In this document: positions 18,138 to 41,752 of the stretch, one piece after another
Layout of the letters: each line of letters starts with the position of its first letter
How positions within the stretch are numbered: the stretch's first letter is position 1
DNA from: Podarcis erhardii
Lineage: Eukaryota
Strand: one strand, 5' to 3'
Assembly (NCBI GenBank): GCA_964252035.1
Contig: OZ176207.1
Length of the DNA: 64,000 nucleotides
Translations under genes and position numbers: made by a program
Notes under the pieces: model-generated
Seen by the model: only the letters and a program-made list of their open reading frames with translations
Told to the model about the DNA's origin: nothing
The model's database searches: none

Positions 18138-18205
18138 AAATGTGACATTTTCAAACGATGGCTGTACTGTCTGTTCAAAGAGCAACTGAATCTCTGGAGC
18201 TAAAC
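18138..18205 (-). CDS. CNBD1: CNBD1 exon: (G)LAPEIQLLFEQTVQPSFENVTF
   Basis: Acceptor ccccttcattacattgcag|GT and donor TTT|GTAAGT; 68 nt, phase 1 to 0. Restores the frame between the 39906 and 6411 exons. Confidence 0.8.
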
Positions 18206-18590
18206 CTGCAATGTAATGAAGGGGAAAGAAATTCCCTGTTACCTTTTTTAGGAAAGCTAAGGAAAGAAACAGAATAAAGTGCAGTCCAAATATTATCATT
18301 CCTGAAGTAAATAGATTCCAGGGCAACAAAGACTATTGTTACATTTCCTTGGAATGGGGTTTCCCTTAGTTTTGTATGCTGACAGCTACTTGCTTTATGT
18401 AGCAAATGCTTTCTACTATTATATTAGACTTGCAGCCGTAAAGAACTATTAAATTATGGAGCCACATTCATGGCCCCAGTGCTAAACCTGAGTTGGCTGA
18501 ATTGCATTCCTCAAGGCCAATGACATGAACAATCACTGCAGTATTATGAAGAGCTACTCTCTCCCAACCCCAGTCCTTACATATGACTTA

Positions 18591-22157: not shown

Positions 22158-22630
22158 TGTTCCTCTTCTTCCGGCTCTTTTCACTTTTCTCCTCTGATCA
22201 ACATGATTCTGTCAATTTGGAAGTGGGTGGAGGAATGAATCATGCATTACAAATGGGTATTTCTCAAAACTGCCAGAGAGACTTATTTAAGAGGTAAAGC
22301 TGCTTTCTTGCATCATATACATCAGGGATAAGGATACTATGGCACTCCTGGTATTGTTGGATCCCTACTCCCATCATCTCCCATTTTGGCTGGGACTGGA
22401 ATCAGAGTTAGTTATGGGGAAGGAATTTGATTCACTTTGCATTAAAATGCAAACTTACAGACTGTGCACTTTCTGAAACGGTACACAAACCAAAACAGAC
22501 ATTCTTCAAAATTCACATTTCTCTGAATTTTGTAATGCAGTTCTCCAGCCAAGTAATGGGGACAAAAAAAATGCATATATTAAGTGTGCCTATAAATGCA
22601 TGCATTAGTGAAAATAATATACAAAATGCA

Positions 22631-23935
22631 TTCTTGGGCAAGGTGATTGAGCGGGTGGTTGCTGAACAACTCCAAGCACGCCTGGAGGAAACGGACCATT
22701 TGGATCCCTTCCAATCGGGATTCAGGCCTCACCATGGGACTGAAACTGCCTTGGTCGCGCTGGTTGATGATCTCCGGCGGGCTAGGGACAAAGGTGAGAG
22801 CTGTTTCCTAGTTCTGCTGGATCTCTCAGCGGCCTTTGACACCATCGACCATAACATCCTTCTGGACCGTCTAGAGGGGCTGGGAGCTGGGGGCACTGTT
22901 ATACAGTGGTTCCGCTCCTTCCTCCTGGGCCGTGTCCAGAAGGTGGTGGTGGGGGGTGAGTGTTCAGACCCCTGGGCTCTCACTTGTGGGGTGCCTCAGG
23001 GTTCTGTCCTCTCCCCCATGCTTTTTAATATCTATATGAAGCCGCTGGGAGAGATCATCAGGGGGTTTGGACTGGGTGTTCATCAGTATGCAGATGACAC
23101 CCAGCTCTACCTCTCCTTTAAATCAGAACCAGTGAAGGCAGTGAAGGTCCTGTGTGAGTGCCTGGAGGCGGTTGGAGGTTGGATGGCGGCTAACAGATAT
23201 AGGTTGAATCCTGACAAGACAGAAGTACTGTTTTTGGGGGGCAGGAGGCGGGCAGGTGTGGAGGATTCCCTGGTCCTGAATGGGGTAATTGTGCCCCTGA
23301 AGGACCAGGTGCGCAGCCTGGGAGTCATTTTGGACTCACAGCTGTCCATGGAGGCGCAGATTAACTCTGTGTCCAGGGCAGCTGTCTACCAGCTCCACCT
23401 GGTACGCAGGCTAAGACCCTACCTCCCCGCGGACTGTCTCGCCAGAGTGGTGCATGCTCTAGTTATCTCACGCTTGGACTACTGCAATGCGCTCTACGTG
23501 GGGCTACCTTTGAAGGTGACCTGGAAACTGCAATTAATCCAGAATGCGGCAGCTAGACTGGTGACTGGGAGTGGCCGCCGGGACCACATAACACCGGTTC
23601 TGAGAGATCTGCATTGGCTCCCAGTACGTTTCCGAGCACGATTCAAAGTGTTGGTGCTGACCTTTAAAGCCCTAAATGGCCTCGGTCCTGTATACCTGAA
23701 GGAGCGTCTCCACCCCCATCGTTCAGCCCGGACACTGAGATCCAGCGCCGAGGGCCTTCTGGCGGTTCCCTCATTGCGAGAAGTGAGGCTACAGGGAACC
23801 AGACAGAGGGCCTTCTCGGTAGTGGCGCCCGCCCTGTGGAACGCCCTCCCATCAGATGTCAAAGAGATAAAGAATTACCTGACGTTCAGAAGACATCTTA
23901 AGGCAGCCCTGTTCAGGGATGTTTTTAATATGTAA
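22631..23935 (+). CDS. L2 ORF2 reverse transcriptase (N-terminally truncated)
   Basis: QSGFR, DLSAAFD, GVPQGSVLSP, QYADD, LNPDKTE and SRLDYCN motifs. The first ~68 aa of the ORF-track call 22427-23935 come from unrelated flank. Confidence 0.9.
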   Translation, partial: FLGKVIERVVAEQLQARLEETDHLDPFQSGFRPHHGTETALVALVDDLRRARDKGESCFLVLLDLSAAFDTIDHNILLDRLEGLGAGGTVIQWFRSFLLGRVQKVVVGGECSDPWALTCGVPQGSVLSPMLFNIYMKPLGEIIRGFGLGVHQYADDTQLYLSFKSEPVKAVKVLCECLEAVGGWMAANRYRLNPDKTEVLFLGGRRRAGVEDSLVLNGVIVPLKDQVRSLGVILDSQLSMEAQINSVSRAAVYQLHLVRRLRPYLPADCLARVVHALVISRLDYCNALYVGLPLKVTWKLQLIQNAAARLVTGSGRRDHITPVLRDLHWLPVRFRARFKVLVLTFKALNGLGPVYLKERLHPHRSARTLRSSAEGLLAVPSLREVRLQGTRQRAFSVVAPALWNALPSDVKEIKNYLTFRRHLKAALFRDVFNM

Positions 23936-31148: not shown

Positions 31149-31451
31149 ACAGGTGTGTGAAAAACAAATTATACTATCATGAATCAGCAAACCTTAAACC
31201 GGGGGTGTAAAAGGGAAAGAGACATGTCATCTAACTCCTCGAAATTACAGTGGTCTTCCACGTTTCCCCTACACCATCCAACCCCTTCTACATCACCAAT
31301 GTTCATGAGACGACTGATAAAACGCTGCAAAGTAACAAATATGATGCAATTATTGGCCAATCATTCATAAACACTTCTGCGCAGTGGGGAACCTCTCTCC
31401 TCAAAAAAAAAGAAAAGCAAGGCTTTTTTGTCAGGATGCATCGAGATCCTG

Positions 31452-31875
31452 TTGCGTGTTGAGTCCCACAACGCCACCCTCACCAAATAACTCACACTTC
31501 ACACATCATTTTTGTTTAAGGTTTTTGGCATGATTTTGGCCACAACTTTATTAAAATACAAATACGTGAGTGGTTGCTTAGGCATTGGTTATGACTATCT
31601 GTCCTTGCCCAGGGACAGAGCTGGCCTTCCGGATTCCAGCGGAAGCCAGCATGGGAAACAAGTATTGGGTGAGAAAATGAAGCCGGGAATCAGTCTCACA
31701 CCTCTCACCCTCATGTTCCTGTGGGGCTTGCACGGCCCAAGTCCGACTCCGGGGACAAGGACAAAGAATGGCAAGCCCCTGGATTCCTTTAACGGAATTC
31801 CCTTTCCGCACCACCATTGGAGGGGTAGGCACTTACCCCTCAACCAACCAATTTTAACCAATGCCTAACCGCCAA
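31452..31875 (-). repeat. Ngaro split direct repeat B2 (424 bp, 3' end of element)
   Basis: Direct repeat of 32258-32681. Confidence 0.95.
31547..31552 (-). terminator. Polyadenylation signal AATAAA in B2 (identical copy in B1 at 32353-32358)
   Basis: The minus strand reads TTTTAATAAAGTTGTGGCC, followed by GT-rich downstream sequence. Confidence 0.65.
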
Positions 31876-32050
31876 CCTTACAAGTTGTGACTTATTTGCT
31901 ACGCAGTAGGCGAAACCCAAATGGCACCAGCCAATCAGCCAAATGGTAAATTCCTACCAGGCCCCCGCACCAAGGCGGACGACCCCATGACAGGCATAGC
32001 AAGGTCAAGCGAACCAGAAAACCCTACCCATTAAAGGGAGGGCGGGCGGG
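31876..32050 (-). other. Unique 175-bp spacer between A2 and B2 carrying a conserved structured motif
   Basis: Not repeated elsewhere in the large element. 31882-31964 aligns by eye with 2601-2665. Confidence 0.8.
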
Positions 32051-32260
32051 TGATCCGGTGCAGAGGCCAAGAGGACGCCCAGGAGAGGCGACCTGCATAT
32101 ATAGCCTCTGAATCCCTCCTCCCTTAATGGCCACATGCAAATTCACTGGCAACAATTAACCCTTAAAGGGTCTGGCCTTTTCCAACTGCCTGGTCACCGC
32201 AGGGTGGCTTGTATGTCCCAACCGCAACACGTGCTCTCTTTTCATGGAGAACACGCTTTG
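32051..32260 (-). repeat. Ngaro split direct repeat A2 (210 bp)
   Basis: Identical by eye to 38856-39065; overlaps B1 by the TTG at 32258-32260. Confidence 0.95.
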
Positions 32261-32681
32261 CGTGTTGAGTCCCACAACGCCACCCTCACCAAATAACTCA
32301 CACTTCACACATCATTTTTGTTTAAGGTTTTTGGCATGATTTTGGCCACAACTTTATTAAAATACAAATACGTGAGTGGTTGCTTAGGCATTGGTTATGA
32401 CTATCTGTCCTTGCCCAGGGACAGAGCTGGCCTTCCGGATTCCAGCGGAAGCCAGCATGGGAAACAAGTATTGGGTGAGAAAATGAAGCCGGGAATCAGT
32501 CTCACACCTCTCACCCTCATGTTCCTGTGGGGCTTGCACGGCCCAAGTCCGACTCCGGGGACAAGGACAAAGAATGGCAAGCCCCTGGATTCCTTTAACG
32601 GAATTCCCTTTCCGCACCACCATTGGAGGGGTAGGCACTTACCCCTCAACCAACCAATTTTAACCAATGCCTAACCGCCAA
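32258..32681 (-). repeat. Ngaro split direct repeat B1 (424 bp)
   Basis: Direct repeat of 31452-31875 at an offset of 806. The ORF track shows three identical translations at the same offset. Confidence 0.95.
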
Positions 32682-32709
32682 TGGAGCCCTAAGCTCACCG
32701 CCAAACCAC

Positions 32710-33312
32710 TCACGAACCCAGCCAAGACCTCAGCTTGGCAATCACAGCCCCCAGCCATGCCTTATTCCCTAAGGCCGAAAGGTGCACCCCGTCATCCCTG
32801 AAAAGAGATTCATCCCTAGCAAGAAGCTCGGGATGAGAGATCACATCACCTCCCAGTTCAAAAACCTTTTTTGAGACAGCGGCATTGATACGCTTCCTGG
32901 CCCTTTCAATTGCCGTTGGGCAACGACTGCCTCTCCAACCACGTCTTTGCAAAAACTTCGACCAGAAAATTTTTGCTGCCGGCACCATTGCTCGCAGCAC
33001 CTCCAAATCGCCCAGGATTGCAGTACGTAACGAAACACAGCCCATGGAAACCAAGTCGTTCTCCCCCAGCTGCACCACAATGGCCGTGGGCGGCCCTTCA
33101 AAGCCCAACTGCCTCCGCATCAATGGCAGAAACTCTGTCCAAGACATTCCCCTTCTGGACAGCCATGAAACGTGTACGTGATGAGGAAGGCCGAGACCTG
33201 ATCCCAATCCGCGCTGCCTGGCCTCGATGCCGGCCCAATGCACGATGCTGTGCCCCACCATCCAGATACGGACTGCTGCTACACCTGGGATGAACAAATA
33301 AATAAGAATCAT
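32710..33312 (-). CDS. Ngaro ORF4, SGNH/GDSL-like hydrolase (esterase)
   Basis: Block I WMVGHS, block II RRGMSW, block III QLGEND and block V DDGVH are all present. The ATG lies 3 nt after the YR stop, in the same frame. Confidence 0.88.
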   Translation of the reverse strand: MILIYLFIPGVAAVRIWMVGHSIVHWAGIEARQRGLGSGLGLPHHVHVSWLSRRGMSWTEFLPLMRRQLGFEGPPTAIVVQLGENDLVSMGCVSLRTAILGDLEVLRAMVPAAKIFWSKFLQRRGWRGSRCPTAIERARKRINAAVSKKVFELGGDVISHPELLARDESLFRDDGVHLSALGNKAWLGAVIAKLRSWLGS

Positions 33313-33315
33313 ATG

Positions 33316-34286
33316 TTAACGAACATAACCTCTAAAAGCGTCAGATTTCCAGCGACCCAAATTCTTAATTCTGCTGGCAGACAGACCCCAGTGCACTGCC
33401 GTCGTGGCCGCCCCGATCCTAAAAGAATGGGGAGCAAAACCAGTGGCAGAATCACCACAGGCCACGATGGCCTTCCGCATCACCATTGCAAACTGGCGCC
33501 TAGACAGGGGCAACCCATTCTCATGCCTCAACAGCGGACCATCCCCAGGAGCCCGGATGGCCAGGTATTTCCTAACATCCTTGACCGGACAAGGTCCCGC
33601 CCCCCCTGTGGCAGGGAGACGAAGAAGGGCTCCCTTTCCCCTCTGGTCCGTTTTAGAGTTTCTAATCATGAGCCTTAGCTCATTCGGGAACAACAGTGCG
33701 TCCCGAAGTAATAGTCCCCTAGAATGGCCGTGTTTGTGATCCTCCCATACGAGTTCACCAACCCTCAAAGCTCCGAAGAATGCAATAGAGAAGGCTGCGG
33801 AAAAAAGGCGAGCCTCATACCTGGACCAGCAAACCTTTCGCAGTTCTTTTCGCATTTTACACAGCAAATCAAATGATATAGGGTGCCGTGCAGCTGGCAG
33901 AGAAGGACAGAGCCGACCCCACCCCTCCAGGGCCTTACGCACCACGAACTTCTCACAAGGATCCTTGTCAAAATAAGCTTTACAGAAAAAGGCAATGGCA
34001 GCTGCCTGGATCCTTATTGTCTTAGGTGCGCGACCCAACTGAAATAGGTGCGCCAAATATTTTAGCACCTGAGAAGTGGAGGGTGAAGCCAACCTTTTCT
34101 TCCTGGCTGACTTGTGCATAAAAGACCAAAAATCAGTCCAAGCTTTAGTGTATGACCTGAGAGTAGAAGAGGAAATAGAGGCCGCTACTCCCTGAAAAAC
34201 TAATTCCTGCCAAGGCTCCAGAGATGATCCGGGAAATATTCCGGACGTTCCCGAGCCTCTGGAACCAGATGTCTGAACCGCTCCAT
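33316..34286 (-). CDS. Ngaro ORF3, tyrosine recombinase
   Basis: Catalytic set GALRVGE (R), SKTD (K), HSFR (HxxR), GRW and FRGYVR (Y). I translated the frame upstream of the ATG at 34119; it stays open to 34305 and encodes WQELVFQGVAASISSSTLRSYTKAWTDF, which looks like the N-terminal core-binding helices. Confidence 0.93.
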
Positions 34287-36029
34287 CTGAAAACGGGACA
34301 GAGCATCAGCAATTTCGTTAGACACCCCAGGAACAAAACGAGCAGAGAACACTATGTTATAGCGCAAACAGTGTAAAACAAAAGCCCGTAACAAGGCTGA
34401 CACCCTCGGAGAACGGGACGACAGCTTAGCCAGCACATCCACCACCGCCTGGTTATCGGTCCAAAAGCAAACACGTCGGTCCCTGAACTCCTCGACCCAC
34501 AAGTGCACTGCCACTGCAATGGGAAAGAACTCGAGAAAAGTCAGGTCCCGCGTAATGGCTTCCCCTTGCCAATCCGGAGGCCAACGCATGGCACACCATC
34601 TGCCCATCCAATATAGACCAAAACCCAGGGAACCTGCCGCATCTGAATGCACCTGAAAATCGTTATGCAAGTTCAACGTGTCCTGCCATAACGACACCCC
34701 ATTGAAATCCTCCAAAAATTCAAGCCAAATGTTGAGATCAGCCCTCACCTCACTAGAGAGGCGAACACGATGATGTGGGGCCTTCAAACCCACAGTGAGG
34801 CGAGCCAAACGAGAACAAAAGGGGCGACCCGGGGCCACCACCCTACAAGCAAAATTTAGGTGTCCTAATAGCGACTGTAGTTGTAGCAGGGACACCTTCT
34901 TTAACGGGAGTAACTCTCCTATGACTTTCCGCAACGCAATCAGCTTATCCTTTGGCAAGCTGGAAGTTTGGGACACCGTATCCAACAGGATGCCTAGGTA
35001 AGTGAGGCGGGTCGAAGGACCCTCAGTCTTTTCAGCCGCTAATGGCACCCCCAATTCCACCGTAAGGTCCGCGAATGCGCGCAACAACACCGAGCAATTG
35101 TCGGTAGAACAATCCGAAGCCAGTAAAAAATCATCCAAATAATGAGTAACACCGTCCAGCCCGGTTTTCTCTTTGAGGGCCCACTCCAAAAAGGTGCTGA
35201 AAGATTCAAACGCAGCACACGCTACTGAACAGCCCATAGGCATGGCTTTGTCAAAATAATATTTGCCTTCAAACTGGAAACCTAGTAGCCAAAAATCCTC
35301 CGGATGAATAGGCAGTAAACGAAATGCCGACTCAATATCGCATTTTGCCAGCAAAGCAGCCCGGCCAAACTTCCGAATCATCTTGATCGCGTGATCAAGG
35401 GAAGCATACTTTACTGAGCAAAGCTCCGGAGGAATCACATCGTTAACTGATGTACCCCTAGGATGTGATAAATTATGAATCAAACGAAACTCGCCAGGGG
35501 CTTTCTTAGGCACGATACCCAATGGGGATACGTGTAAATTAGGAAATGGAGGGGCAGAATAAGGACCCGCCATCCGATGCAAAGCCACTTCCTTTGTAAT
35601 TTTCCTTTGGGCAATTTCAGGCAATTCACGAACTGATTTCTGATTAGACGGATTCCGAGCCACCGGCGGCATGGCTACCGGGATCCGAAAACCAACAGAA
35701 AAACCTTCACTCAGATAGCGCGCCGCTACCCTATCGGGGTAATGCTGAAGCCACCTCAATAGTGCCGGCAAACAAACAGGAGTAAAGGCCAAGGAAGTCA
35801 GTACACTATTTTGCTGTACCTGAGGTTGAAGGGGCAGGGGGGGCGGACTTGGGGGGTTGCTGAGAACCCCCTCTTCCCCCACGAAAGGGCCGCCGACCAC
35901 TAAAACAAGAGGAAGCAGGGTGCGCTCCGTTGCATTTTTCGCAATTGTGCGCAAATCTACAATATTGACGCTGACAAGAGGCCCTATTAAAATCCCAGCA
36001 TGGCAGGCGACGGCCTGGTTTAAAAGCAA
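34200..36029 (-). CDS. Ngaro ORF2, reverse transcriptase / RNase H
   Basis: RT motifs FRLIHNLS, DIESAFR, MPMG and THYLDD; RNase H motifs SDAAG, LEFFP, TDN and ADALSR. Overlaps the ORF1 3' end by 224 nt in another frame. The true start is unclear. Confidence 0.95.
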   Translation of the reverse strand: MLLNQAVACHAGILIGPLVSVNIVDLRTIAKNATERTLLPLVLVVGGPFVGEEGVLSNPPSPPPLPLQPQVQQNSVLTSLAFTPVCLPALLRWLQHYPDRVAARYLSEGFSVGFRIPVAMPPVARNPSNQKSVRELPEIAQRKITKEVALHRMAGPYSAPPFPNLHVSPLGIVPKKAPGEFRLIHNLSHPRGTSVNDVIPPELCSVKYASLDHAIKMIRKFGRAALLAKCDIESAFRLLPIHPEDFWLLGFQFEGKYYFDKAMPMGCSVACAAFESFSTFLEWALKEKTGLDGVTHYLDDFLLASDCSTDNCSVLLRAFADLTVELGVPLAAEKTEGPSTRLTYLGILLDTVSQTSSLPKDKLIALRKVIGELLPLKKVSLLQLQSLLGHLNFACRVVAPGRPFCSRLARLTVGLKAPHHRVRLSSEVRADLNIWLEFLEDFNGVSLWQDTLNLHNDFQVHSDAAGSLGFGLYWMGRWCAMRWPPDWQGEAITRDLTFLEFFPIAVAVHLWVEEFRDRRVCFWTDNQAVVDVLAKLSSRSPRVSALLRAFVLHCLRYNIVFSARFVPGVSNEIADALSRFQMERFRHLVPEARERPEYFPDHLWSLGRN

Positions 36030-37332
36030 AATTTCTCAACTTCTGCTGCTCAGGTACCTTTTTGTCGATAAGTGGGGCCACATAAGTAGTCCATACGTCA
36101 AGATCCTTACGATCCCAGCGGGCAGAATGAATCTTAGCAGCACGGCGCCTGAAATTCTCATCGTACTTGATCGCCGCTTTCTCACCAGCTTTGGTGAAGG
36201 CGGAGCGCACAATGGATAAATAGACTAACAAATGAAGGGACCTCCGCGGATAAGCTGCCATAACTACGCCAGCGAAGACCTGGAAACCATCGAGCCAACG
36301 CTCGAAAGTCCTATCCACCGCAGCGGCCCCTGAACGTCTTTTGGTAGAAGAGCTACCCTTCTCCTGATCCTCAGAAGGTGGGACTAATTTGAAGATATCA
36401 ATGTAGCGTCCATTTAAAATTCTGGACCGCAATTTTGATGACAAATGAGAGCCTGGTATGATATCCCTGGCCGAGTTGGTTGAGACTTTTACGTCAGGAA
36501 CCAACACGCCATCCCTACATTCCTGGACAGCCCCATACTTCGCCCGATGAGTGTTCGATCTGCGTTCCCAAGCCCATCGTGGGAGCCCAGAGACCGATTC
36601 GCCAAAGCCCCAATAAAGTTCCATGTGGCTACCCTCATCATCTGAGCTAGAGGACGACGTACCCGAAAGAGAGGAAGAAGAGTCGTCCTTCTTCCGCTTC
36701 GCACGTTTTCTAGATGACCTCCTGCGACGACGCTTCCCCCCCAACGACTTCCTGGCGGGGACCGGGAGACTGTCTTCGATAGAGGACTCCGAATCAGGGT
36801 TCCCCTGGGATGGAACTGAAACAGACTGCATAGAGACAACGCGTGAGATGCCAGAACCCGAGGCTACGCCAGCTGGAGGCCGAGTGGGCGTGCGCCGGCA
36901 AGTAGAAACCGCCGGTGGGGCGCTTCTTTCGGAGGCCCGCCTAGAGAGGCGGCTCGACCTCCGAGGCTGGCTCTGTATAACAGGTAAGTCTGGTGACTGG
37001 GATAGCTGGGGGCCCCCAATTAAGCTCCCCGTTGGAGATCCCTCGCTCCCGACTTCGCTAGATGACGGGGAAGCTGGTGAAGACACCAATGCTGAAAACT
37101 GCGGCCTTCCGGAGGTGGATGGTTGGGAAGAACAACGTTGCAAGACGCCGTCCATCTCTGCTGCGAAGCGTGAAAGGGCCGCCGGATCTCCAGCCATGCT
37201 TGCCACTAGAGATTGCACTCTCCCCACTGTTTGGCTGGAGGAGGGTGAGCGAAGCGCCTGAGATGGGCCTCTAATGGGCCGTTTTGAAGCCATGGCTGAA
37301 CTGGAGCGAGGAGCAGCTTTCTTTGGTGCCAT
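35806..37332 (-). CDS. Ngaro ORF1, gag-like protein
   Basis: First ATG at 37332 (MAPKKAAPR). Ser/Pro/Arg-rich N-half, and a C-terminal Cys/His cluster CWDFNRASCQRQYCRFAHNCEKCNGAHPASSC of the kind seen in DIRS/Ngaro ORF1. Confidence 0.85.
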   Translation of the reverse strand: MAPKKAAPRSSSAMASKRPIRGPSQALRSPSSSQTVGRVQSLVASMAGDPAALSRFAAEMDGVLQRCSSQPSTSGRPQFSALVSSPASPSSSEVGSEGSPTGSLIGGPQLSQSPDLPVIQSQPRRSSRLSRRASERSAPPAVSTCRRTPTRPPAGVASGSGISRVVSMQSVSVPSQGNPDSESSIEDSLPVPARKSLGGKRRRRRSSRKRAKRKKDDSSSSLSGTSSSSSDDEGSHMELYWGFGESVSGLPRWAWERRSNTHRAKYGAVQECRDGVLVPDVKVSTNSARDIIPGSHLSSKLRSRILNGRYIDIFKLVPPSEDQEKGSSSTKRRSGAAAVDRTFERWLDGFQVFAGVVMAAYPRRSLHLLVYLSIVRSAFTKAGEKAAIKYDENFRRRAAKIHSARWDRKDLDVWTTYVAPLIDKKVPEQQKLRNFAFKPGRRLPCWDFNRASCQRQYCRFAHNCEKCNGAHPASSCFSGRRPFRGGRGGSQQPPKSAPPAPSTSGTAK

Positions 37333-37577
37333 ACCTGCTAGCAGGAAAGAAATCAAAACCAGTTAAATTTCCAAGAAGCAGCAACGCGGCTAAAAAGCAA
37401 ACAAAATCACACCAGATCACCACTGCTGTGCCTTACCACGCACGGCTGTCCAGCCACTCCTAGCAAGGAACCACAATACAGCAATTAAACCTATGCAGAA
37501 AATGTATGAGCAATGGAAAATCTCTTGGCTAGAAGCAACGATTCAAAACGTAAATAGGTAACAATCAGGCTGTCTGT

Positions 37578-37620
37578 CTATCTATCTATCTAATCTATCT
37601 ATCTAACTATCTATCTATTT
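37578..37620. repeat. (TATC)n microsatellite inside the Ngaro leader
   Basis: Imperfect tetranucleotide run. Confidence 0.85.
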
Positions 37621-37964
37621 AACTAGATCTGGGCTTAACCTGTGAGAAATACTTGTCCACAAGGCCACAGCAGCGCCTGAGCCAACCTAAGAGGCCGCAC
37701 CGCCGGCCCAGAAACAACCAACGGACCAACCAGGCAACTAATAGTCCGCTATCTATGACCAGCCTCAGACAACTAGTAAAATGAAGAGACAATTACTCAA
37801 CATAACCAGCAGGGGGGGTAGCCCCAAACGAAAACAATGGAAGGCGCGGTACCACCCTGGGCCACTGGGGGAGCTCACAGTGAAAGTCACTTGCGATTAT
37901 GCAGCAAATTTACTAAATAAAAGAAGGCCCAAACCGCACTGGGGAAAATCCCCGAGTCACTGTG

Positions 37965-38350
37965 GGCCCGTGCGTGCCGGCGCGAAGCCTGGCAAGCCGC
38001 TCCAGACTCAAACGGGGCCTACAGAAGCCCCAGGACGGCAGGCGCCAACGCACGCGGCCGCGCGATTGCGCGGACCAGCCCCCCGGACCCTGCAGGCCCC
38101 AGCGTGCAGGCGCGAAACCAGACAGGCCTCACCACGCTCCAACGGGGCCTAGAAGCCCCAAAACCACGGGCGCCCACCAGCCGCAACCGCGCGACCACGC
38201 GGACCAGGCCCGAGGTCCCCGCAGGCCCGCACGCGCCGGCGCGCAGCCGGCAGGCCGCCCACCCCACGATGGGGCCCGCAGAAGGCCAAAACGGCAGGCG
38301 ACCCCTCGCCGCCGCCGCGCAACCGCGCGGACTAGGCCCCAGGCGCCGGG
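37965..38350. repeat. Three degenerate ~130-bp CpG-rich tandem units in the Ngaro 5' leader
   Basis: Units start near 37965, 38095 and 38224 (ggccc..gcg.gc.ggcgcg...ggggcc..agaag...gcggac.agg). Confidence 0.7.
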
Positions 38351-38855
38351 GGATGAGAAGCGGCAACGGCCCACGGAGAGGTAACAGGGCCCGGCCCACG
38401 GATAGGGGATCGAAAAATAGGTAAGCGTTCGCCGCAGCGGCGGTGGGGGGGGGGCCGGTTGGTGCTCAGCGGTTACGGAACCGCAATCAACCAAATTGAG
38501 AGGGGGGTAGGCCGCGGCCTGGAAAAGCGGCTGCAAACCCCCCCGCCCCAAAACGCCCTCGGCGCCCCTCGGATCGACCCAAAGAGGGGCCTGAAGGCCG
38601 GGGGAAAGCCTCCCCCGGGCCGGGGGTGGGGGTGGAATCCCCGCTTCCCACCTAGCCTCTTCCGCTTAAATAAACAATAAACAGGGAAGAAAGATAGGGT
38701 AAATAAGAAGAGACGGAGGAGGGGAAGCGAAAGAGTGAAAGGAATTAAGGAGGAAGAAAGGGGAGAAGAAGGGCTTAGGAATTAGGACAAAATATATAAA
38801 AGCAGCAAATAGATATCAGGTTTAGCAATACAACCGGTTCCAGCAGACTGCTCCT

Positions 38856-39065
38856 TGATCCGGTGCAGAGGCCAAGAGGACGCCCAGGAGAGGCGACCTG
38901 CATATATAGCCTCTGAATCCCTCCTCCCTTAATGGCCACATGCAAATTCACTGGCAACAATTAACCCTTAAAGGGTCTGGCCTTTTCCAACTGCCTGGTC
39001 ACCGCAGGGTGGCTTGTATGTCCCAACCGCAACACGTGCTCTCTTTTCATGGAGAACACGCTTTG
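38856..39065 (-). repeat. Ngaro split direct repeat A1 (210 bp, 5' end of element)
   Basis: Identical by eye to 32051-32260. Confidence 0.95.
38902..38908 (-). promoter_or_regulatory. TATA box (TATATAT) in repeat A1; identical copy in A2 at 32097-32103
   Basis: The minus strand reads GAGGCTATATATGCAGG about 45 nt before the end of repeat A. Confidence 0.6.
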
Positions 39066-39394
39066 TAGGGTGTTTAACAACACTGGTAAAACACCACACA
39101 CAAATAATTTTGATGAGACAGTAATTAATAACTTAATTATTATTCCTTTTTTGGGCAGGGTTCTTTCAATGGACATATGTAGGGCAGGGGAAAGAATGTA
39201 AAGTAACTGAAGACTTTATCAAAGAGAGCATGATCCAGTTCTGAAATTAATTTCAGAAATAATCCTCATTAAACCAAAATTTAAAAGGAGTGCATGGGTG
39301 CAGGACACAAAAAACAATAAAGGAGTGGAACATGGAAAATGTTCTTATTCCTAACTAGATAAAACATAAAGCACAAAGAAGACTGTAGAGAAAA

Positions 39395-39658
39395 TGTTAT
39401 GTACTGAAGTTCTCACCCTGGGCCAGCAGGGGGATACTGTAGATAATTTTTACTCAGGTCCACATATGCAAATAAAGGATCAAAAGTGACATTCAGTGAT
39501 TGGATAGTTACAGAAAGTTGTTACAGTTACATTGTACTAGAGCTCTATATAAGCAGGCTGGCTGAACCCTTCAGTTCAGTTCTGTTCTGGCCTGTGAATA
39601 AGCAAGAGCTGTTTGAAGAATCGCTGTGTCATCTGATATGTTCACCCACAACCTAACA
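39395..39658 (+). mobile_element. Solo LTR (264 bp), antisense to CNBD1
   Basis: TGT...ACA termini and perfect 5-bp TSD gaaaa (39390-39394, 39659-39663); ATGCAAAT at 39466-39473, ATTGG at 39499-39503, TATATAAG at 39546-39553. Confidence 0.85.
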
Positions 39659-39905
39659 GAAAAGGCACATTGATTATGCTTAGGGCGCTTCCAGACTGTT
39701 GCTGTTTTCTAGTGGGATATACTGGAAAGTGGGATACAACTTACATGATGCAACTTCATCTATCGGCTCCCGCAAACAAACAGAATGCATGCTCAAAAAA
39801 TAGCTTACATCATCTAATCTCCCTGCAAGCTCTGTGCAAGCAAAACGAGATGAGAACTTAAAGGAACTATACTAAAAGAAAGGAAAGCAATGCATTTGGA
39901 TTTAC

Positions 39906-40056
39906 CATGTATGTCTGCAGCATCAATAATTCCTAGTTCAACAGGCGTTCCTGCTTTCAGAGTATATGTAGATGGGGTCTGATAGAGAACGCTTACTTCT
40001 CCAAAGGAATCTTTTGGATGCAGTTGGCCAATGAGGACTTGTTTCATCTGCTTCAT
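39906..40056 (-). CDS. CNBD1: CNBD1 exon: MKQMKQVLIGQLHPKDSFGEVSVLYQTPSTYTLKAGTPVELGIIDAADIH
   Basis: Acceptor tttcaaaacag|ATG and donor CATG|GTAAAT; 151 nt, phase 0 to 1. Contains the SFGE motif of cNMP-binding domains. Confidence 0.9.
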
Positions 40057-41421
40057 CTGTTTTGAAACATGAACCCATACTGTTTGTTTCTTCAGCACAT
40101 ATTTAGGACTAGAAGATGCACAGCGTACAATTTATATGATAAATTGCAAAAACTGTATGGGCTGATGGCCCTTGGTATGGTGCAAAATTCTGGCTGAGAA
40201 GCTAATGGAAGTGTGAGGTTGTCTGAAGCTTTTAGGAACGCATGGGGGTCTTTTATAACATTTGCAATGTGCTTTAGGCTGTGCACGCACATCTTATCCT
40301 AGAATCAATGGAGCCTTAGTACTCCCCACACCATTTAGATCTATTGCACTTAGTTCCTCCTTGAACAGCCCTTCTTGAGAAATTGGCTTCATTCTGAAAA
40401 TAAATGCTCATTGTAGATTAATTCTGCATCACCCCATAGTATCTCCTTTTGAAAACAGATGTGGGTAGTCCCAGCAATATGGTGTTTGTATCCACATCTA
40501 CCCAAGGACATTGTGGGTAGGGTTCTACCAAGACTTCAATCACCACTTCCTACTTTCTTCTTCCATCGGCTGGGGCATGTACAGGGAAGAAAAGGTATGG
40601 ATAACTTAATCAAGGGGAGGTTTTCCAAAGCTTGTCACATGACCGCATTCACGCTTGTGAACAGCAGGATTTAGAATCAATGTAGACTGAAATAAGCGTG
40701 TTGAGGATGAGCATGAACAATTCTGGATCGAGAAAAATTACATTTTAGCAATGTAAACATAGCCATGGTTATCACCAGATCCCCCCAAATCTTTTGGGAA
40801 AGACCTGATGCCCTGACTCATTTGATCTTCAATTTCATTATCATTTGAAACATTTAACTATATTCCTGTGAGAATATTCTCCCCCCAGGTGACTCATTGT
40901 CTGTACAAATGATAGTCACCAAGTTTGGGGGTGGTTGCATTTTGTTTTATTGGCACCACAAATATAACATTTTTTATACCTAGACAGAAAGCTACAGATA
41001 CAGAATGCAAAATATGCACAAAAATGCACAAAAAAGTGCTGTCACAATTAAGTATTTATAAGTGCCAGGAACTCCAGCATAAGAATTAAGCACATGCTTA
41101 GCTCTCTCCCCTGAAATCACAGAGCTTCAATGGGTCATACCCAACACGGTTGGGTTTTGGTATAATTTGGTTAAAGAATAAGGAAAATTCCAGGTTCGGG
41201 GCAAGTACACTTTGGTGACAGGGGCCCAGCAGAGATTTAAAAACACAAAATATGCTCTTAAGAAATGTTGAATGTTTAGAAGCTAGGCTATGTTTTATTT
41301 GCGACATGATAACTGACATTCCCTGAGCAATGTGCCTTAAAAGTCATATTTTAAAAAATAATAATAAATCAAGCAAACCAAATAAAAACAATCACAAGGG
41401 GAGGGGAGAGAAAAGATAGAA

Positions 41422-41752
41422 CATGGGTAGGCAAACTAAGGCCCGGGGGCTGGATCCGGCCCAATCACCTTCTAAATCTGGCCCGCAGATGGTCTGCGAA
41501 TCAGTGTGTTTTTACATGAGTAGAATGTGTCATTTTATTTACAGTGCATCTCTAGGTTATTTGTGGGGCCTGCCTGGTGTTTTTACATAAGTAGAATGTG
41601 TGCTTTTATTTAAAATGCATCTCTAGGTTATTTGTGGGGCATAGGAATTTGTTCATTTCCCCCCCCCCATCAAAAAAAAATATAGTCCGGCCCTCCACAA
41701 GGTCTGAGGGTCAGTGGACCGGCCCCCTGCTGAAAAAGTTTGCTGACCCCTG
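41422..41752 (+). mobile_element. hAT MITE, family copy 3
   Basis: Perfect 8-bp TSD agatagaa (41414-41421, 41753-41760). Confidence 0.88.

Follow-up and report, generated by a model that had tools for sequence, protein, structure and literature searches.

A stretch of 64,000 nucleotides from the lizard Podarcis erhardii (NCBI GenBank assembly GCA_964252035.1, contig OZ176207.1), here called the window and free of N letters, carries a full-length tyrosine recombinase (YR) retrotransposon of the Ngaro group in an intron of the CNBD1 gene. The element's own DNA occupies 31452..39062 on the minus strand, a net insert of 7,611 bp as delimited by empty-site contigs and by a crossover rule drawn from 61 copies, both described below. 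Read on the minus strand, on which all of its features lie, its roughly 7.6 kb run in the order A1, gag, reverse transcriptase (RT)/RNase H, YR, SGNH hydrolase, B1, A2, spacer and B2. The A1 repeat (38856..39064) starts with an AAA core and contains the TATA-like word TATATA at 38903-38908, a likely promoter. It is followed by a CpG-rich leader (37333..38855) with an imperfect repeat of 130-nt spacing and, just before the gag ATG, a pyrimidine tract and YAG. Beyond the four open reading frames (ORFs) lie B1 (32258..32681) and A2 (32051..32259), which overlap by 3 nt; their junction (32220..32266) is a copy of the recombination site, and its AAA core (32257-32259) falls within a hairpin predicted for the sense strand. 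A 175-nt spacer (31876..32050), also retained in solo elements, and B2 (31452..31875), with AATAAA at 31547-31552, complete the element.

The initial annotation had judged both repeat pairs identical by eye, and exact extension bears this out: 31452-31875 equals 32258-32681 at 424/424 positions, and 32051-32260 equals 38856-39065 at 210/210. The boundary at the A1 end could be refined, in that 39063-39064 are target bases and 39065 is a chance match; a 3-bp target site duplication (TTG/CAA) was discarded as formal only, because its outer base is that chance match. The leader shows little CpG decay, as had been suggested: its observed/expected ratio is 0.84, or 0.88 if only the GC-rich part is taken, while the flanks have 0.26-0.27. 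Rfam gave 0 matches over 31400-39100 at E up to 1. The proposed Ngaro architecture was likewise recovered, with split direct repeats A1-ORFs-B1-A2-B2 in identical pairs and with gag-like, RT/RNase H and YR ORFs in order and in one orientation; an SGNH hydrolase ORF after YR is the mark of the amphibian-type Ngaros. No inverted repeat was found at the element ends, and the inverted terminal repeats and internal complementary region of the DIRS1-like class are lacking. The split direct repeats are shared with PAT-like elements, but the methyltransferase is absent, the YR is colinear and a hydrolase is present. Judged by every feature tested in its sequence, the element is a hydrolase-bearing Ngaro.

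All four frames (35806-37362, 34200-36035, 33316-34305 and 32710-33315) are open, as first annotated. ORF1 (35806..37332) begins with an ATG at 37332 and encodes 508 aa; it had no match in Pfam, and its assignment as gag-like follows from its position and a C-terminal Cys/His finger-like motif. ORF2 (34200..36035), 611 aa between stops, shares 230 nt with gag, matches RVT_1 (E 1.6e-12) and contains the RT motif YLDD and the RNase H motifs SDAAG, LEFFP, WTDNQ and ADALSR. A methyltransferase found no Pfam match in the element, and ORF2 has no space for one because only 30 residues follow ADALSR. ORF3 (33316..34305; 329 aa) is the YR; it matches Phage_int_SAM/Phage_integrase with scores below the Pfam cut-offs, carries the motifs LRVGE, SKT, HSFR, GRW and GYVR, and returned 0 matches in a PDB sequence search. 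The SGNH hydrolase, ORF4 (32710..33312, frame to 33315; 201 aa), has its ATG 3 nt past the YR stop and matches Lipase_GDSL_2 (E 4.8e-6). Its model from a 30-row alignment has a mean predicted local distance difference test score (pLDDT) of 90.3, against 36.6 for a single-sequence fold, and resembles TesA/GDSL esterases, with the ZfL2-1 ORF1 esterase at rank 45; a PDB sequence search gave nothing useful (1 match, E 0.52).

Across the family copies described below, the ratio of nonsynonymous to synonymous divergence (dN/dS) is 0.10-0.17 for gag (to 7 relatives), 0.04-0.08 for ORF2 and 0.05-0.13 for YR where computable. Between lineages it spans 0.04-0.25 over the four ORFs, with mostly synonymous differences, and purifying selection acts on all four. 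HSFR is kept in 58/59 open YR frames. The hydrolase motifs GHS, LGEND and DxxH are each present in 54/54, and such strict retention of the catalytic triad indicates that the hydrolase is required for transposition. Putative expression signals recur as well. A regular-expression search placed a TATA-like word at A offset 152-166 in 21/35 full copies, AATAAA stands 78-105 nt before the B end in 35/35, and YAG lies 2-3 nt ahead of the ATG in 23/23 gag starts printed; the pyrimidine tract and YAG are likely a splice acceptor. Three copies (L065, L069 and L098) have gag and pol in one frame of 944-1068 aa, which may reflect frameshift changes or hint at the mode of pol expression.

The placement in a lizard CNBD1 intron was upheld by tblastn, which located seven CNBD1 exons on the minus strand, with the element between 40068-39904 and 18212-18138. 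The exon upstream of the insertion (39906..40056, minus strand) encodes a cNMP-binding domain (PF00027 over cut-off), has AG/GT borders and matches CNBD1 proteins, with 94% identity to Podarcis raffonei; the closest named proteins are from Podarcis. The next exon downstream (18138..18212, minus strand; an approximate tblastn span) is 92% identical to database protein P0001. The element is therefore in the sense orientation relative to CNBD1, within a 21.7-kb intron.

Evidence on the age of the insertion comes from its empty site. Word presence was scored over 36500-41500 in sequencing runs, four small same-label runs with almost no words being left out; 87-89% of the words occur in three runs of one sample and 17-28% in 17 runs from eight other organism labels. 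No RNA run was listed as containing this interval, which says nothing on expression. A same-species data set (X1) yielded one 596-nt contig at depth 131, of which 1-243 lie on 31211-31454 and 241-596 on 39063-39418. A 586-nt contig from another organism (X4) joins both flanks without the element in the same way, a 578-nt contig of X3 departs at 31454, and contigs of X6 and X12 depart at 39063. The element is thus missing at the orthologous spot on a same-species chromosome and in three related organisms, and since the two flank segments of the empty site share 3 letters, the net insert is 7,611 bp. A flank contig of X2 breaks off precisely at 31454, where the presence of both alleles would create a branch point. 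Element DNA almost identical to the focal copy also occurs in X1; its leader differs by two base changes and a 1-nt gap and is covered at depth 63-155, compared with 90-131 for the flanks. Most simply, the animal would be heterozygous at this site, possibly with a sister copy at another locus; alternatively, the data may reflect another individual or minor errors of assembly. Whichever holds for X1, the insertion site is not fixed. The empty site in the same species and in other organisms therefore marks the insertion as recent and unfixed, in agreement with the initial annotation, and the identity of the element as a Ngaro together with its recent insertion can be regarded as nearly certain. 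Repeat identity by itself is a poor clock: with an assumed rate of 2e-9 per site per year, it gives an age below about 1.2 My. In the flank, the assembly and X1 are without 9 bases at 39309 that X4, X6 and X12 have, and both carry 6 extra bases at 39342 relative to X4 and X6; these indels are species-level markers.

To place this copy within its family, 60 loci were fetched from the same assembly, 50 of them from rows 2-52 of the best YR matches (one with stops was skipped) and 10 from rows at 55-61% YR identity. Together with the focal copy they comprise 35 full copies and 23 short copies of the form A-ORFs-B, and 3 further fetched copies have a full 3' end with A1 absent from the stretch. 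Four open frames are found in 20/35 full and 9/23 short copies; both repeat pairs are 100% identical in 16/35 full copies, and 19/35 keep mismatches. The YR search gave 1,072 candidates, and by hand count at least 110 of the 130 scored are stop-free. The rarity implied by the initial annotation does not hold, and the focal copy is ordinary for its genome. The genome-wide count of near-identical copies that it proposed found none among the candidates scored: the best other copy in a whole-element search (5,788 first-look candidates, best 24 scored) reaches 87%, and the nearest nucleotide neighbour of the focal YR 87.1%. In other subfamilies, 2-3 loci carry sister copies whose YR identity is 99.4-100%. 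A search with A plus spacer produced 3,430 candidates, of which 40 were scored; among 28 loci retrieved by way of A, 14 carry solo A-spacer-B forms of about 810 bp. A homogeneous burst was ruled out among the solos seen, whose best pairwise identity is 91-95%. We infer many long-lived lineages, each leaving few young full copies, and full copies are probably reduced to short and solo forms as their repeats recombine.

Some members of the family merit separate mention. Short copies with full sisters at 99.6-99.9% YR identity (L070/L071/L078, L079/L082 and L086/L088) suggest that a copy takes on the short form during insertion or shortly afterwards, and other clades (L098-L100/L102, L095/L097 and L073/L080/L083) consist of short copies only. 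L064, L076 and L111 have full repeat sets with internal leader or gag deletions (5.6-6.9 kb); since both repeat pairs of L076 and L111 are 100% identical, these two were possibly mobilised in trans. A 30.4-Mb sequence, G000:C19, makes up about 2% of the genome and holds 28 of the 130 scored YR matches (hand count); its size and numbering suggest that it may be the W chromosome, in which full-length elements would find a refuge. A short-form Ngaro with four open frames and 65% YR identity (L109, G000:C8:28490466-28491371) lies about 120 kb away from the focal copy.

The position of strand exchange was mapped at 58 left and 61 right ends, four right ends being taken from the earlier of two parses. 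At the left the third core base is A in 58/58; at the right the core reads AAA in 24, AAC in 24, AAT in 11 and AAG in 2 of 61. Departures from AA at the first two core positions are seen in 3/58 left and 0/61 right ends. In genome-wide pattern scans tallied by hand, which agree with this, non-AA bases occurred in 15 of 100 left-end rows listed (162 matches; control 0) and in 5/86 terminal right-end rows (96 matches, 10 internal ones dropped; control 13). This pattern of core bases at both ends locates a single crossover after the second core base, so that junctions take the form flank-NN|A-element and element-AA|H-flank, to which the empty site described here conforms. In 37/61 copies the host site and the element have different third core bases, with a constant polarity of inheritance, and 3-bp identity between target and element is not needed. 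The target shows a purine at -2 in 52/58 and A at -1 in 1/58. Permuted insertions, with a left flank ending in the B arm, were seen in 0/58. A single crossover after AA is also the arrangement at integron attC-type sites.

Around this crossover, the sense strand is predicted to fold into a long hairpin in which the end of B pairs with the start of A (z -4.97 as single-stranded DNA), and sense folds better than antisense in 6/6 copies. Across 38 copies (33 distinct) the consensus has 16 pairs with 97.7% of cells paired, compared with 33-53% for slid controls. Two-sided changes occur in 6/16 pairs, in 29 cells against 4.5 after shuffling. A T-G pair is present in 32/33 distinct rows, which favours the sense strand, and invariant AA/TT pairs close a 2x2 internal loop that begins exactly at the crossover. 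An alternative view, that the junction is a 7-bp palindrome surrounding AAA, was abandoned, as 3/10 of its positions match in distant subfamilies, where the long hairpin holds.

Relatives of the element were found in geckos, anoles, cordylids, amphisbaenians and snakes, which again speaks against rarity, and reptiles are named among the hosts carrying DIRS-like as well as Ngaro-like elements in PMC9210276. Identity in pol is 83-89% to Podarcis muralis, 65-77% to Zootoca, 53-59% to other squamates and about 50% to frogs (47-52% to Xenopus proteins). In a quick tree of 48 rows, built solely from database proteins of unnamed family, the pol proteins of squamates fall into a single clade, separate from those of amphibians (SH-aLRT 96), and the lacertid rows also form one supported clade. 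A single squamate clade fits vertical descent, and a squamate-wide, apparently vertically inherited Ngaro clade is suggested. Four database proteins (P0054, P0104, P0105 and P0109) are artefacts; they comprise a Podarcis model in which this RT is fused to the receptor domain PF01094, and Ngaro-like RTs in metagenome-assembled genomes of bacterial symbionts, which are likely host contamination. RepeatMasker libraries include an LTR/Ngaro class. No description of a lizard Ngaro or of a folded junction was met in the titles and abstract openings listed by full-text literature searches, and Goodwin and Poulter 2004, Repbase and Dfam may already contain squamate families and terminal rules.

The closest described counterpart is Xenopus DIRS-53_XT, for which PMC9210276 reports the A1-ORFs-B1-A2-B2 order with 100% identical pairs and potentially active copies, overlapping gag, RT/RNase H and YR ORFs, an extra SGNH hydrolase ORF and no methyltransferase. 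The lizard element differs in its amniote host and in the lengths of A (209 nt) and B (about 422 nt), which are 236 and 152 nt in Xenopus, and the lizard has far more lineages; Ngaro makes up 0.04-0.09% of Xenopus genomes. An empty site, a crossover map and a junction fold are absent from the parts of that paper covered here. The Ngaro of Cafeteria (PMC8547959) shares split direct repeats and solo AB forms, which that paper attributes to recombination between repeats; it has three ORFs, no hydrolase was found in the text consulted, and it prefers virophage sites, whereas the lizard Ngaro weakly favours particular nucleotides, namely a purine at -2, a base other than A at -1, and AA|H. DIRS1-like elements also integrate by YR at a trinucleotide junction, NTT/AAN (PMC3266345; PMC7192593), and 775 such sequences in many families are reported from the lizard Anolis carolinensis (PMC3266345). 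Inverted repeats, an internal complementary region and a methyltransferase set DIRS1 apart from the element studied here, and the published DIRS1 model requires an identical 3-bp target (PMC3266345). The DIRS-1 cDNA is described as single-stranded (PMC7192593). In integrons, IntI recombines a folded single strand at AA/C, with one exchange and replicative resolution (PMC4792948). The tyrosine recombinase and the crossover after AA are common to attC x attI recombination and the Ngaro; a folded single-strand partner with unpaired bases and a single strand exchange would be further likenesses. The lizard element is, by contrast, a eukaryotic retroelement without a fixed attI and with a free third base.

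The Goodwin and Poulter model, as cited in PMC6681497 and PMC7192593, has an RNA from A1 to B2 reverse-transcribed and its ends rebuilt from the internal B1-A2 junction, so that A1 equals A2 and B1 equals B2 at insertion. On the account proposed here, the rebuilt junction would be a sense single-stranded stretch that folds. The YR would cut once, after the AA of the folded B/A junction, and join it to an AA|H host site, so that the folded strand alone would be exchanged with the duplex of the host; integration would then be completed by replication or repair. Later recombination between A1 and A2 or between B1 and B2 would give rise to the solo A-spacer-B and short A-ORFs-B forms, in which case full copies would turn over fast and many divergent lineages would coexist. 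We consider it quite probable, overall, that this is an intact, recent and unfixed Ngaro copy, likely integrated by its YR on a folded single-stranded B/A junction; the single-strand step taken by itself is put at just short of evenly balanced. That dozens of lacertid Ngaro lineages are active at present and integrate in the manner of integron cassettes, in place of the model of a double-stranded circle and identical trinucleotides, is advanced more tentatively. The focal copy itself could still be active.

Several observations weigh against these proposals. The intact fractions are biased upward, because the 60 loci came from the best YR matches. As noted, the assembly holds no near-identical sister among the best candidates scored, and the leader is nearly unique, with only one other assembly match, at 71%. 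The filled junction, with 31 letters on each side, is bridged by none of the contigs listed. The left and right non-AA frequencies in the pattern scans differ with a Fisher p of 0.057. For the hairpin, 9/500 shuffles reach 6 pairs with two-sided changes, the independent events are few because most such changes separate two or three subfamilies, and the most distant copies fold with weak z values (-1.9 to -2.1). Being on the sense strand, the hairpin may act in RNA instead. This last point belongs to the classical account, stated for DIRS in PMC3266345 and PMC7192593, in which a double-stranded circle recombines its 3-bp junction with a matching host 3 bp and the hairpin would serve in RNA, in template switching, packaging or hiding the poly(A) region of B1. 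The preference of the target core for AA agrees with it, as do G-U-type pairing, the inclusion of the junction in the transcript and the AATAAA about 99 nt upstream. It is nevertheless at odds with a third core base mismatched in 37/61 copies with the same polarity throughout, with the absence of the permuted insertions that a circle with two equal junctions should yield, and with an internal loop that starts exactly at the crossover and is closed by invariant AA/TT pairs. The classical account is a possible one that we find rather doubtful.

The lack of a close sister could also mean that the copy is intact in a lineage already silent, its master gone or repressed, and the distance to the nearest YR neighbour is in keeping with this. 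We hold silence to be unlikely, given the empty allele in the same species, the element DNA of X1 that may be a sister copy outside the haploid assembly, and the young sisters of other subfamilies. A few positions within the element at which X1 disagrees with the assembly raise the question of whether repeat identity or the insertion is an assembly artefact. This is very unlikely, as more than half of the full copies in the same assembly keep repeat mismatches, both junctions obey the family rule and match an independently seen empty site, and the X2 flank contig stops exactly at the insertion point. Recent horizontal transfer from an amphibian or fish would suit a young copy of a family best described from fish and frogs; pol identity nevertheless drops with host distance and the tree recovers one supported clade for squamates and one for lacertids, which makes such a transfer extremely improbable.

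Other repeats and genes lie near the element. A 5'-truncated long interspersed nuclear element, presumably L2/CR1-like, with a 507-aa open RT frame (RVT_1 E 1.1e-32) occupies 22412-23935 on the plus strand, in the same CNBD1 intron and antisense to the gene. The right flank contains very high-copy short repeats at 39395-39660 and 41170-41500 (depth above a million), probably short interspersed nuclear elements. About 200 kb beyond, on the opposite strand, a second cNMP-binding exon (G000:C8:28825627, plus strand) is found, as would be expected of CNGB3 lying head-to-head with CNBD1.

New here are the 61-copy crossover map, the lack of a need for 3-bp identity, the absence of permuted insertions and the covarying sense-strand hairpin. 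For the host gene, CNBD1 transcripts from one allele could be cut short by a sense 7.6-kb insert that brings a putative splice acceptor and two poly(A) signals. For the family, the value of this copy is carried by a matched empty site, a mapped crossover and a testable single-strand model. Integration of YR retrotransposons is still largely an untested model, and an amniote with many intact, unfixed copies makes such tests concrete.

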